A stretch of DNA of 64,000 nt, taken from the NCBI RefSeq assembly GCF_030384885.1, contig NZ_CP128614.1; one strand, written 5' to 3'. Below are positions 15,001-21,000 of the stretch, piece after piece. Made by a program: the position numbers. Source of the DNA: Escherichia coli. GTDB taxonomy: Bacteria > Pseudomonadota > Gammaproteobacteria > Enterobacterales > Enterobacteriaceae. The stretch's first letter is position 1, and every line of letters begins with the position of its first letter.

Positions 15001-18000
15001 ACCAACCATGAATATCGCTATGGTTGGCCTCGGCTGGGATGCCCGTGTAACTGACGGTCAGGCTTTTGACCTGGACGCTTCCGTGTTCGCAGTAGGCGAA
15101 GACGGTAAAGTGCTGTCAGATGCGCATTTCATTTTCTTCAATAACAAAACCAGCCCTGATGGCGCGGTAGAGCACCAGGGCGACAACCGTACCGGTGAAG
15201 GCGACGGTGACGATGAGCAGGTCAAAATCGATCTGACCAAAGTCTCAGCAGATATCAAAAAACTGGTGTTTGCCGTTACCATCTATGATGCAGAAGCGCG
15301 TAAACAAAACTTCGGCATGGTGAGCAACAGCTTCATGCGCGTTTACAACAACGACAACGGCACGGAAATTGCCCGTTTCGATCTGTCTGAAGATGCCTCA
15401 ACCGAAACCGCTATGGTCTTCGGTGAACTGTATCGTCATGGCGCTGAGTGGAAGTTTAAAGCTGTCGGTCAGGGCTTTGCCGGTGGCCTGGCGGCTCTTG
15501 CCTCCCAGCACGGCGTTAACATCTAAAACAACGCTGAATCATACCCCGGCAATGCCGGGGTTTTTTTTGGTTGCGATCCGCTTTCAGGAGGGAGTAGTAG
15601 AAAGGGGACTGGAAATTTCAGAAAGCAGGTCATGTTAATTCAGACCTGAGCCTTTTAAAGGCAGGAAACGGATTTATCTCTGGTTGCTGGTTAAAGCCGG
15701 TATTCCGTGCCTTTTATCAACAGAATGCCCCTCTGATATATGTTACTTTTGCGGTTTATGAAGGAACGGGATCTGGAACATAAGATACCCGGTCAATCAA
15801 AATTCCAGTTCAACAGGTATAGAAACTTCAGCGTGATGAAATATGGTGTCACACCATATATACGCCTCACCAGAAATCCAGCGTCCTGAACTAAGCCTGG
15901 GGAACATATATAAGCGCTGCGCTTTAAAAATAATCAAAAATCAGGAGAGTTAATGTGAATCTACAATCCGGACAAAACATACCGCTTCAGCAATCTGCGA
16001 TCAGGCTGAATCTTCAGTACCCTGCCAAATCCGGCTTTAAAGGCGAACCCGATACCTGCCTCTTCCTGCTTAATGCTCAGGGAAAGGTAACCGGCGATTC
16101 TGACTTTATCTTTTATAATAATCTGTCTTCTCCTGAAGGGGCAGTAAAGCTCGTTACCGGTTCTCAGCAGTCCAGCATTGAGATAGCACTGGATCGTGTT
16201 CCGGCGAACGTCAGTAAGATTGCGATCACCGTTGTCATTGATGGTGAAGATACTATCAGTGGGCTCAGTTTATTGAGCATTCAGGCTCCTGGTATCGCTG
16301 ATTTTCAGGCTGAGACTCAGGGCCGCAGTGAGAAAGCAATCATCCTGGGTGAAGTATATCGGCACAATGGCGCCTGGAAGCTTCGTGCGCTCGGGCAGGG
16401 TTTCAACGGTGGTCTTGAGCCTCTGGCCATTAGCTTTGGCGTTGATGTCGCACAGCCAGCTCCGCAGCCAGCAAAGCCTGCTCGTATCAGTCTGGAAAAG
16501 AAACTTGAAACCAGATCTCCGCGCCTCGTAAGCCTCGCTAAAAAAGCCTCGGTCAGTCTCACTAAAAATAAACTGGACACCCTTGAGGCAGCGGTTGCAT
16601 TTGTACTTGACGCATCCGGCTCAATGAGTGGCCAGTTCAGTAAGGGCAACGTTCAGTCTGTGCTGGACCGCATCGCCGTTCTTGCCGCCCAGTTCGACGA
16701 CGACGGTGAAATGGATGTCTGGGGATTTGGAGAGAAGCACAAGAAGTATCCAAACGTCACACTGGACAACCTGGACACATATATTCAGTCCATTCGCGGG
16801 TCTGGAAAGCGTTCAGCCTGGGAGAACCTGCCGGGACTTGGTGGGACAAACAATGAGCCCCCTGTGATGGAAGAAATTGTCGACTACTTTAAGGACTCGA
16901 AAATCCCGGTATATGTTGTATTTATTACCGATGGCGGGATCAGCAAGACCCGGGCGATTAAAGATGCAATCCGGCGTTCTGCCAACTACCCCATCTTCTG
17001 GAAGTTTGTCGGCCTGGGTGGTTCAAGCTACGGTATCCTCAAAAATCTGGATGACTTTACTGACCGCCGGGTTGATAACACCCACTTCTTTGCCATGGAT
17101 GATTTCGGTTCGATCAGCGATGAAAAGTTATATGATAATTTACTGGAAGAATTCAGACCGTGGATCGATGAAACAAAAAGGTTAGGCATCCTGTAATACG
17201 CACAGTTTTCGCATGGTTAAAGGAGCTCTACAGCAGCTTAATACTGTAGAGCCTTTGTTCACTGGAAATCGTACAGGGAGGAGCATATGGACCGCATCAA
17301 GTACCTGAAATGGATAGCTGAAGAATCACCAACTGATGATGAAATCGACAACTACGATAGTATCATTAGTCGGGGCGCAGAAAGGGCCGAGAAGGTTCAG
17401 TTGTCTTTAAGACGTTAATATACGGGAGTTTAAATGTTCGCAGAAATCAAAGATAATTATTCGTTAGGTGGATAAAGAAAGGTTGCCATTACCAGCTTTC
17501 GACGAGTCGAAAATAAAAACCTTATTTATAGTGACAGGGAGTATGAGCTGACGCTTGCCAATGGAACAATAATTAAAAATGTACTTAGAAAAGAAGAGTG
17601 GGAACTGTTAGAAAGCAATTCAATTAAGGTTATATTATAACGAAAATATATTTACAGTTTTGGATAGGTTTCAAACGAGTCCGGACATTTGTACCTGAAG
17701 TATCTGACATTACAGTTAAGTGACGATTATGCCAGCACGTCTGTTGCTGGCAGCTTAGCTATCGGTCTAAAAGCTGATCCATTAATAATTCTTCGTAAAG
17801 CCCAGAGGTATCGGGCTTTATTACAATATCCGTTATTTCGAAGCGTTCAAGTACAAATTGCAGATATTCCGGAGTAACGTAGTAGGGATCAGGTTCAGCC
17901 AGATTAGTATAGAGTGGGTCTTCTGCTGCATTAATGTCATAATCAATGCACATATGAAACCACTGCAAAGGTGGATCCCAGCCTAACATCACCTGAACAA

Positions 18001-21000
18001 TTCCCTGATTGCTTTTCACCTCATACCAGTGCTGGCTCATACTTAGTCCTTAAGAAAATTTGTCATCGGAAAATAACACGAAGCCTGCATCATCGAGGCG
18101 CATAACCTTCTTCCCTTAACGCCTGTTGTAATTTATCAACTGCGCTTTTCATTACCCAGGCTTCTTCGTCACTCACAGCACAACCACGTAGATCGCTCCA
18201 GCTCAGACGTTTAACAAATTGAGCAAGGGCCATAGTTTCGTTCTCATCAAGCCGCAAACTCAGTGTCTCAATACCTTCCACAATCTAACCTCCCTTATAA
18301 TGAAAAATGGCGCTTTACTTCTGACCAGATGCCGAAGCCTTGAATGCAGCCGGAACTGTCGTTGTTTCTACTTTACAGAAATGGAATTAAAAAGTGGTGA
18401 TGCTGGGCACGTTTCTTTTCCAGCCGGGGTTTAAGCCAGAGCTGAAACTCATTCAACTTCTCAGCAGCCAAAACCGCTTCAACGGGGAAAACTTTATATT
18501 TACCCTGTTGCTGAGGTTCACCCAGCCATCGCCTGATGGCTCCGTCAGTCCATAAACGAGTCTCTTTTAGCCTAGTTACAGTGACCCATTTTCTGGACCA
18601 TTCATCAAATTGTCGCTGGCGATCCCGATAACGTTGTTCTTCCTGCTGCCGAAGCCACTCGCGATCAACAGCAAATTTTCGGTATCCAACAAAGAGCCCT
18701 TGTACTTTGGCCATGTCATATTCCGGTTGCTTAGAGTTACTCATTCAACCAAAACCTAAACGTCGATACAAACTCTGTTTCATAACCAGGGTTTTATCCT
18801 TACCGCGACAGTAAGTAACAGGGGCTGCATAAACCGGTCATTTAGTCCGTTATGCAAAAATTATTGAGGATCCGGGCTGTTAAACTGTTCTTCCTCTTTC
18901 GCTTCCGGTGAAAAGGGGAGGTGTCACCCTGCGAGCCCGTGTAGTGAAAGGGATTCGTCGTAATACAGGCCAAAGGCTAACATGACCGCAAAGGACGCCC
19001 GGGCGACCGGATACCTGCCGGGTTGTGCGATGTAAAATCCGGAAGCAGTGATAACACAAACAGGCCCCTACAGCGTAAGGATTGTGATGGACGATAAAGA
19101 GCAGTTTACGAATCTTGTGGCAAAGCATGCCTCCGGACTCACCGAAGAGCAGCTGGCCGGGTACGATGCCTGTTCCCTGGATGGTGAATGCGTCACGCCT
19201 TCATACGAGGTTTTCCGGGGGTATCGTACCCGCCACACACTGGATGAATTTCTGGAGATGGCCATATCGCTGAATGCCATCCACCCGGATGAATATTTAA
19301 CGGATATGCTGCTGAAGCCTCATGAGGTGATCGGCGCTCTGGCCGATGAAGGCGACCAGCTGAACAACGCCACCCCGGTTTATTTCTTTCCGGATACCGG
19401 CGTCTATGCAGCGGCCGTTAGTGAAACCCGGGTGCTCGATGCCTGGCTTTGCTGGCCATGCTACCCGGCGAACTGGTAACGCGGCCGTTGGAATTGCACC
19501 GGCCGGATACGAATTTAACCGATCCCGTGGCGGGAAGGCTATCAGAGTTGCATGTCCTCATCCCTCAAGCCCCCTGCCAGGCCCCAACGTGCTGTCAGGC
19601 TTCGCCTGATTCCCGATCTGCGCCGATACTTCAGCCGATAACTTTTTGTTTTCTTTTTATTTTCTTCCCATTTCCTCAAAAATCGCGGGCGGCGTGGACA
19701 GGGCACCATTGCCGCATGTGGGGTCTTAATAAGGGCAGGGTGGTCAGTTTTGCTCGATGCCATGGGTAGGCCCTCCCCTTCATGGGATGAGGACATGCAA
19801 GTAAGCTAACTATCTGAAATGACGAAGGTTCATTTGGTGAATGTCGCTTCATATTAATGTTGTGTCACTTATGATCGTATGTAGCTGGTTGCAAAGAGGA
19901 GCGATGAGACAATAAAGTTGTATCGCTAACAAGATTTATGCTGCCACATAGTAACAGCCTAAAAGTTGTACGCCCTATTTAACAGCTTTTAGGCTGTTAA
20001 TTTGATATTACAGCTTTTAGGGTGTATGTTTAGGAAACAGCCTGCAAGGTGTATCAGAGGAAACTACTGAGGCCAGCTTATGATCAATAATGATTACCCG
20101 TTAAACACGCTCAACCAGCTGCGTCCCTTGCTCATTGGTTTTCGCAAGGCGAATGGCCTGACGCAAAAAGACCTGTCCGAAAGGTTAGGCGTCACTCAAC
20201 AGACATACTCACGTCTGGAAGCCAACCCTGCCAGTGCGAGCATTGAACGGCTATTCAAGGTGTTTTCCATCCTGGGCGTAAAAATCAGCTTCTCCTCGGC
20301 AACCACCTCTTCAGAGAGGAAGCAGACGGAAGAAATGCTTAAATCAAACTCACCTGCACGACAGGAGGATTGGTAACGATATGAGCCGGAAACAGCAACG
20401 TCTGGTAATTTGGATGAACGGCATCAAAGTCGGGTACTGGGAAAAAAGCAAAGGGGTAGACAGCTTAGAATACCTTCCTGAATGGGTTGCTGACGAACAG
20501 GGAAGGCCGCTGTCATTGTCCCTTCCTTTTACTCCCGGGAACCAGGTCTGGCGTGGAAATGTGGTACGTGACTATTTTGATAATTTACTGCCGGACAGCG
20601 AAGGCATACGCAGACGTCTGGCAATGCGTTACAAGGCCGATAGCCTGGAGCCTTTTGATCTGCTGACGGAGCTGGGAAAAGACTGCGTGGGCGCGATACA
20701 GCTGCTTCATGACGGAGATGAACCCACTGATTTATATTCCGTGAAGTATCACCCGCTTACTGAATCAGAAATTGCGGCAACTTTGCGTAATACCACGGAG
20801 ACATTGCTACCGGGCAGGCCAGAAGATAACGACGACTTACGTTTATCTATTGCCGGTGCTCAGGAGAAAACAGCCCTACTGTGGCATGAAGATCGGTGGT
20901 GTATGCCGGAGGGTAATACACCAACGACGCATATATTCAAGCTACCGCTCGGACTTGTGGGGAACATGAAAGCCGACATGAGCTCGTCGGTTGAAAATGA

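Follow-up and report, generated by a model that had tools for sequence, protein, structure and literature searches.

Four small genes between ter and hipBA of an IncHI2 resistance plasmid are real, independently assorting accessory genes

Introduction

Antirestriction and anti-defence proteins of mobile elements, such as ArdA, ArdB/KlcA, ArdC and PsiB, are small and acidic, and strong acidity is a trait of DNA-mimic and other inhibitor proteins. Here we describe four small open reading frames (ORF1 to ORF4) located between the ter and hipBA genes in a 64,000-nucleotide stretch of Escherichia coli contig NZ_CP128614.1 (the whole stretch is referred to as the window), which belongs to an IncHI2 multidrug-resistance plasmid. 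ORF1 and ORF4 resemble the proteins named above in being small, acidic and carried on a mobile element, but share no sequence or fold similarity with them. All four ORFs are genuine protein-coding genes under purifying selection. They do not form an operon-like system; each is an accessory gene of conjugative elements that assorts independently of the other three.

The second described group that bears on the locus is Pfam family DUF7706, to which ORF2 belongs, a small-protein family widespread on plasmids and phage-plasmids. The DUF7706 protein of plasmid pOXA-48 (7.8 kDa) belongs to the pOXA-48 products of highest abundance, as determined by matrix-assisted laser desorption/ionization time-of-flight (MALDI-TOF) mass spectrometry and bottom-up proteomics (bioRxiv 10.64898/2026.07.12.738056). 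The XRE-like regulator orf20 of the same plasmid is essential for its maintenance (PMC12365149); orf20 may be the helix-turn-helix (HTH) regulator gene that precedes the DUF7706 gene. The IncHI2 versions of ORF1 to ORF4 are named in no paper found in the literature, and RefSeq labels each of them 'hypothetical protein'.

Gene map and coding status

The stretch 17200-20100 of the window is 100% identical to pGDE043-mcr1 (NZ_CP099722.1). Matches to it occur in 1,495 plasmid records, and in 656 of these no less than 80% of its length is present in one piece; the exact four-gene arrangement is present in roughly 650-700 sequenced plasmids. The features of the region are as follows, with isoelectric points given as pI.

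15955-17196, terF-like gene with a von Willebrand factor type A (VWA) domain, one flank of ORF1 to ORF4
17759-18040, minus strand, ORF1, 93 aa, pI 4.05, net charge -13
18090-18281, minus strand, ORF2, 63 aa, GTG start, pI 4.65, Pfam DUF7706
18373-18714, minus strand, ORF3, 113 aa, pI 10.3, basic (longer frame to 18744, 123 aa)
18715-19086, divergent intergenic region between ORF3 and ORF4, containing the palindrome GCCCGGGC at 18993-19008
19087-19479, plus strand, ORF4, 130 aa, pI 4.26, net charge -15 (longer frame from 19048, 143 aa)
19548-19800, 253-bp non-coding element with perfect 17-bp inverted repeats (TTGCATGTCCTCATCCC at 19548-19564, its complement at 19784-19800)
20080-21706, hipB/hipA, the other flank

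A sequence-only reading of the window had reported frames of 93, 63, 123 and 143 aa at this place, all of which are present on the strands assigned to them. The sizes of ORF1 and ORF2 were right, and those of ORF3 and ORF4 have to be shortened. ORF3 most likely starts at ATG 18714, giving 113 instead of 123 aa, because this is the RefSeq start and homologues measure 110-117 aa, mostly 113. For ORF4, similarity to IncHI1 plasmids begins just 33 bp 5' of ATG 19087 and GTG 19048 is not conserved; ATG 19087 is the start, for a protein of 130 instead of 143 aa. Ribosome-binding sites of the form AAGGA or AAGGGAGG are good at ORF1, ORF2 and ORF4, that of ORF2 being a strong AAGGGAGG.

Substitutions relative to homologues concentrate at third codon positions in all four ORFs. 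ORF4 differs from its R478-type IncHI2 counterpart at seven sites, every one a third position, and from that of the IncHI1 plasmid pHCM1 at 18, 11 of them third positions. Ratios of nonsynonymous to synonymous differences per site (pN/pS, Nei-Gojobori) were 0.16-0.20 for ORF1, 0.24-0.36 for ORF2, 0.06-0.37 for ORF3 and 0.15-0.39 for ORF4, in comparisons that include homologues at 50-75% protein identity (70-74% in the ORF1 set). Conservation across related plasmids had been proposed as a check, with its lack taken as a sign of non-coding DNA; the four ORFs are conserved and coding.

Distribution and mosaic history

The four genes had also been presented as a cluster, which is correct as a description of adjacency and incorrect as a description of a unit, since the distributions and histories of ORF1 to ORF4 differ. 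The stretch between ter and hipBA is a recombination-prone, variable segment of the IncHI2 backbone. In R478-type IncHI2 plasmids, only 18824-19800 of the window (ORF4 and its flanks) still adjoins the hipBA side, with genes for a helicase and a CoiA_N-like protein ahead of ORF4; ORF2 and ORF3 stay beside terF, about 29 kb from ORF4 (two sister records of equal length). The extra ~29 kb sits in the ORF3/ORF4 intergenic region, with breakpoints near 18735 and 18787-18824. From 18824 on, the intergenic sequence is conserved together with ORF4 inside IncHI2 (92.6%), and not in IncHI1, which retains just 19054-19745 of the region and does not have hipBA alongside.

ORF1 is intact in the pHNSHP45-2/pGDE043 lineage, and its history involves two further features.

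17333-17987, swapped segment of 655 bp that replaces 548 bp of the R478-type sequence and holds codons 19-93 of ORF1
17287-17418, plus strand, 43-aa RefSeq ORF, stub of a 151-aa gene (WP_000374058) that is intact in R478-type plasmids

The 43-aa ORF shares only its first 15 codons with the 151-aa gene; both begin with MDRIKYLKWIAEESP, and homology to the R478-type sequence stops at 17332. By this comparison, the 43-aa ORF is probably a pseudogene remnant. R478-type plasmids keep the ribosome-binding site and the first 17 codons of ORF1, followed further on by a stop that leaves a 23-aa ORF, and carry the intact 151-aa gene on the strand opposite ORF1. With a stub of the 151-aa gene in the window and a stub of ORF1 in R478-type plasmids, these two convergent genes are reciprocally truncated in the two lineages, and ORF1 arrived, or was retained, as a swapped cassette.

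Two side observations concern these segments. An AT-rich non-coding stretch 3' of ORF1 (17419-17758, GC content 0.35-0.39) arrived with the ORF1 cassette and contains several promoter-like hexamer pairs on both strands. The cargo of the ~29-kb R478-type insert comprises genes for a 3'-5' exonuclease, a helicase and a CoiA_N-like protein (located at L003 1598-4341 and L007 2209-2754), which do not occur in the lineage of the window, as well as IS4321 and more.

Protein families, models and contexts

Scans of the four proteins against Pfam, NCBIfam, PHROGs and PADLOC returned only DUF7706 for ORF2 and a single weak local match of ORF3 to the C-terminus of JetB in PADLOC. Searched as single sequences and as profiles, the proteins had no significant match among solved structures. 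Outside this region the window contains neither paralogues of the genes nor repeats of their DNA, and an Rfam scan of 17000-20400 yielded no match.

ORF1 is the most acidic of the four and matched no entry in family libraries, among solved structures or among phage proteins. Homologues at 70-80% identity lie within unrelated small-gene arrays of other large plasmids, and the conserved core of the homologues reads LGWDxPLxWF...PLYxNL. A homologue at 40% identity on pKPC_CAV1392 is located two genes 3' of genes for an antirestriction protein and a ParA-like protein.

The earlier description of the genes as lacking recognisable motifs does not hold for ORF2, which matches PF24806 (DUF7706) with an E-value of 1e-25 and 89.9 bits against a gathering cut-off of 27, residues 7-63 aligning to positions 7-63 of the 63-position model. 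Searched by tblastn with ORF2, the family occurs in 2,746 plasmid records. ORF2 is 51% identical to its relative on pOXA-48 (IncL), 71% to that of an IncU KPC plasmid and 58% to gp43 of the Burkholderia phage-plasmid KS14; all of these proteins measure 63-72 aa, and ORF2 shows no feature that distinguishes it from the family. A C-terminal EEG(Y/F)(A/S)PR motif is common to ORF2 and the enterobacterial plasmid copies examined. KS14 gp43 lies directly 3' of the rep, parA and repressor genes, and the pOXA-48 gene is co-oriented with, and 3' of, the HTH regulator gene.

For ORF3, a confident structure model was obtained, consisting of a β-hairpin, a long helix and a β-helix-helix-β-β unit. In the model, this unit resembles the winged helix of MerR/excisionase-type proteins such as TorI, AlpA-family Xis proteins, the DNA-binding domain of pSK1 Par and GlnR/TnrA. 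Homologues at 50-67% identity are encoded on Klebsiella IncHI1B/FIB plasmids, where the gene after the ORF3 homologue is not DUF7706 in either of the two loci examined; others, from Vibrio, Xenorhabdus and Brenneria, are known as proteins only.

ORF4 is present in IncHI1, IncHI1B and IncHI2 plasmids, about 1,450 of which carry it together with the repeat element, and it is a backbone gene of the three groups. An exhaustive HMMER scan with ORF4 over 1.84 billion representatives yielded 23 proteins, some seven of which are related over the full length and 33-40% identical; the hits to long, ASPM-like IQ-repeat proteins were discarded as spurious repeat matches. In 100,044 species genomes, the family has two loci. 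Its members share a C-terminal aromatic motif, VYFFPxxGVYA...WLSWPxYPxGW. The ORF4 model is of the α+β type, with a predicted local distance difference test (pLDDT) score of 91.5 and a predicted template modelling (pTM) score of 0.86. Structure prediction, which had been recommended for these genes, thus gave confident models for ORF3 and ORF4; libraries of solved and viral structures held no confident fold relative of the latter.

Most of the contexts examined for ORF4 relatives are conjugative or mobilisable elements, and two have no informative markers; one further contig was of insufficient length for a judgement. The relatives are located as follows.

Chromosomal mobilisable element, the relative ending 4 nt before a MOBH relaxase (TraI_2) gene
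Operon of an F-type type IV secretion system (T4SS), the relative being embedded in it
TrfA plasmid, in a small-gene array that includes RadC and a small ParB_N protein
Pectobacterium conjugative element, after topoisomerase III (TopB) and DUF6012
Citrobacter contig bearing genes for a MobA-type relaxase (opposite orientation), ParA-type ATPase and integrase-family recombinase
P0079, in an array of unannotated genes
P0081, close to a gene for a SNIPE/T5orf172 nuclease

In the chromosomal mobilisable element, the gene order is int, 94 aa, 93 aa, DUF7706, 90 aa, ArdB/KlcA, 112 aa, ArdC, RNase T-like exonuclease, ORF4 relative, MOBH relaxase, integrase. This element spans ~8.5 kb, has two recombinase genes and occupies two different chromosomal sites (L016 350-8787; L017, L018). 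Exonuclease genes occur in two settings, a 3'-5' type in the ~29-kb R478-type insert and the RNase T-like one before the ORF4 relative in the chromosomal element. ORF4 was also considered as a MobI-type relaxosome accessory protein, and this was rejected with hhalign probabilities of 0.1% both against MobI and against the product of the gene between mobI and mobH.

The 253-bp inverted-repeat element

The element at 19548-19800 contains the only long hairpin predicted near the genes and lies 3' of ORF4. In the window, as in IncHI2 and IncHI1 loci, it starts 68 bp past the stop codon of ORF4; the offset is the same in IncHI1B, where the spacer cannot be aligned. Each of 1,451 plasmid records contains it at a single place, with ORF4 adjoining in every locus examined; E. 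coli genomes have a median of one place each, and plasmids account for 397 of the 411 places. The 17-bp repeats are invariant in seven IncHI1, IncHI1B and IncHI2 plasmids, the interior having diverged to 79%, and in two plasmids the right half of the element has been replaced with the right 17-mer retained. The histories of the element and ORF4 disagree. On an IncHI1B plasmid of K. michiganensis, ORF4 has 70% and the element 94.5% nucleotide identity, and on pHCM1 the values are 95% and 79.5%, respectively.

In being short and non-coding, with perfect 17-bp terminal inverted repeats, the element resembles a miniature inverted-repeat transposable element (MITE), but unlike a MITE it is single-copy and fixed in its place after ORF4, without spread to other contexts. 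A proliferating MITE was rejected on the grounds that the element is single-copy; the window contains no further copy of it, and its ends show no evident target-site duplication. A structured RNA or an Frpo-like hairpin was likewise considered improbable; covariation was not found, and the inner helices are broken, not compensated, in IncHI1. An 84-aa minus-strand ORF across the element (19542-19796) is not considered coding, as a 1-nt indel in pHCM1 argues against it. The simplest guess is that the element is a protein-binding or recombination site.

Two observations were made on the hipBA side of the element. Several direct and inverted copies of an ACAGC(C/T)nnnAG(G/C)(C/G)TGT-like motif occupy 19947-20060, just 5' of hipB, and are probably HipB operator sites. 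HNH-endonuclease genes are scattered over the IncHI2 backbone, at 22498-23313 of the window, just 3' of hipBA, and at 91.5, 179 and 220 kb of NZ_CP099722.1.

Discussion

We favour, with a probability of about 0.4, a reading in which ORF1 to ORF4 are independent genes, ORF3 encodes a DNA-binding regulator, and the acidic ORF1, ORF2 and ORF4 proteins block or redirect other proteins in favour of plasmid establishment or carriage. Judging from its predicted model, ORF3 would be a small basic protein that binds DNA via a MerR/excisionase-like winged helix, and its most likely role would be local regulation, either of transcription or of DNA architecture. The ORF1, ORF2 and ORF4 proteins, small, acidic and without catalytic signature, would most likely bind another protein and block or redirect it. 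Their targets would be factors of the host or of its defences, or else an enzyme of DNA processing, and the effect would be to aid establishment or carriage of the plasmid. The three would then share their functional class with antirestriction and anti-defence proteins while standing outside any known family. An anti-defence or establishment role of ORF1, ORF2 and ORF4 is plausible; the sole positive pointer to such a role is the company that relatives of ORF2 and ORF4 keep, in the same orientation, with ArdB and ArdC beside the relaxase of the chromosomal element, which is guilt by association in one element family.

Several points weigh against this reading. Acidity by itself is a weak predictor of function. 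ArdA, ArdB/KlcA and PsiB (PF07275, PF03230, PF06290) and Ocr have no match among ORF1 to ORF4 by sequence or fold, so the antirestriction or anti-SOS function raised in the sequence-only reading finds no family behind it. Its argument from position did not hold up either. In NZ_CP099722.1, Tra2 lies at roughly 9-38 kb, ORF1 to ORF4 at 84.4-86.1 kb, and mobI together with the gene for the MobH relaxase at 189.6-194.0 kb; being ~105 kb from mobI/mobH, and hence from the origin of transfer (oriT), the four genes are outside the leading region in IncHI2 and differ in this, too, from ArdA, ArdB/KlcA, ArdC and PsiB. Furthermore, the contexts of DUF7706 in KS14 and pOXA-48 look like maintenance modules, that of KS14 within a rep/parA module speaking for maintenance rather than evasion of defence, and the ORF4 relatives that sit in tra and relaxase operons might instead take part in transfer as such. 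The functional class suggested at the outset stays a guess.

These last contexts are also what a housekeeping account would build on, in which ORF3 regulates its neighbours, DUF7706 is associated with maintenance or partition and ORF4 is an accessory of DNA processing or transfer. We regard this as possible, yet doubtful. The position of gp43 directly after rep, parA and the repressor gene in KS14, the co-oriented placement behind an HTH regulator gene in pOXA-48, and the ORF4 relatives 4 nt before a MOBH relaxase gene and inside an F-type T4SS operon are all in its favour. However, ORF4 is unlike MobI and unlike the protein encoded between mobI and mobH, it is far from both tra regions in IncHI plasmids, and the R478 lineage as a whole dispenses with ORF1; in addition, the maintenance and transfer lists from pOXA-48 transposon sequencing (Tn-seq), as quoted in the text of the study, do not name the DUF7706 gene, with the mapping of gene names unconfirmed (PMC12365149). 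A toxin-antitoxin function had been raised as one option from the sequence alone; a type II module, for example with ORF3 as DNA-binding antitoxin and ORF2 or ORF1 as toxin, is very improbable. Three small co-oriented genes do adjoin the known toxin-antitoxin system hipBA, and the first of them, ORF3, is predicted to bind DNA; but the ORF3-ORF2 pairing is limited to IncHI2. In other settings unrelated genes come after the ORF3 homologues, and the DUF7706 genes have no ORF3 beside them. Gaps of 91 bp and 49 bp separate the three genes, which are hence not translationally coupled, R478-type plasmids have ORF1 truncated with its neighbours kept, and Pfam, NCBIfam and PADLOC contain no toxin, antitoxin or defence family match to these proteins. 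The module, and with it the ORF3-ORF2 pair, was rejected because the pairing is not conserved across replicons.

It is extremely improbable that the ORFs, or part of them, have no function and are chance frames or decaying hitch-hikers. Public annotation offers only the 'hypothetical protein' label, the families are narrow, and the adjoining 43-aa ORF is an example of a true remnant; set against this are the Pfam match of ORF2, the confident models of ORF3 and ORF4, the conservation of ORF4 across three IncHI groups, with about 1,450 plasmids, and purifying selection on all four genes, also at 50-75% amino acid identity, because of which a non-coding reading fails. A more specific proposal concerns ORF4 on its own. 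Its rare family, with a new fold, would comprise acidic inhibitors specific to conjugative elements and directed at a host defence or DNA-processing factor, working in IncHI plasmids with the 17-bp inverted-repeat element, e.g. as a protein-binding or recombination site for the exchange of modules between IncHI lineages; we consider this unlikely.

ORF1 to ORF4 are thus ordinary but real uncharacterised plasmid genes, with ORF4 and the repeat element as the most interesting piece. The main yield of the analysis is a clean-up of the annotation, comprising corrected start codons, a Pfam family for one gene, a pseudogene stub and the resolution of the 'cluster' into a mosaic. Among carriers of mcr-1, mcr-9 and other multidrug-resistance genes, IncHI2 plasmids are a major group. 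If the acidic proteins inhibit host defence or establishment factors, they would help to explain the host range of IncHI plasmids, and would add families without a known fold to the anti-defence catalogue.

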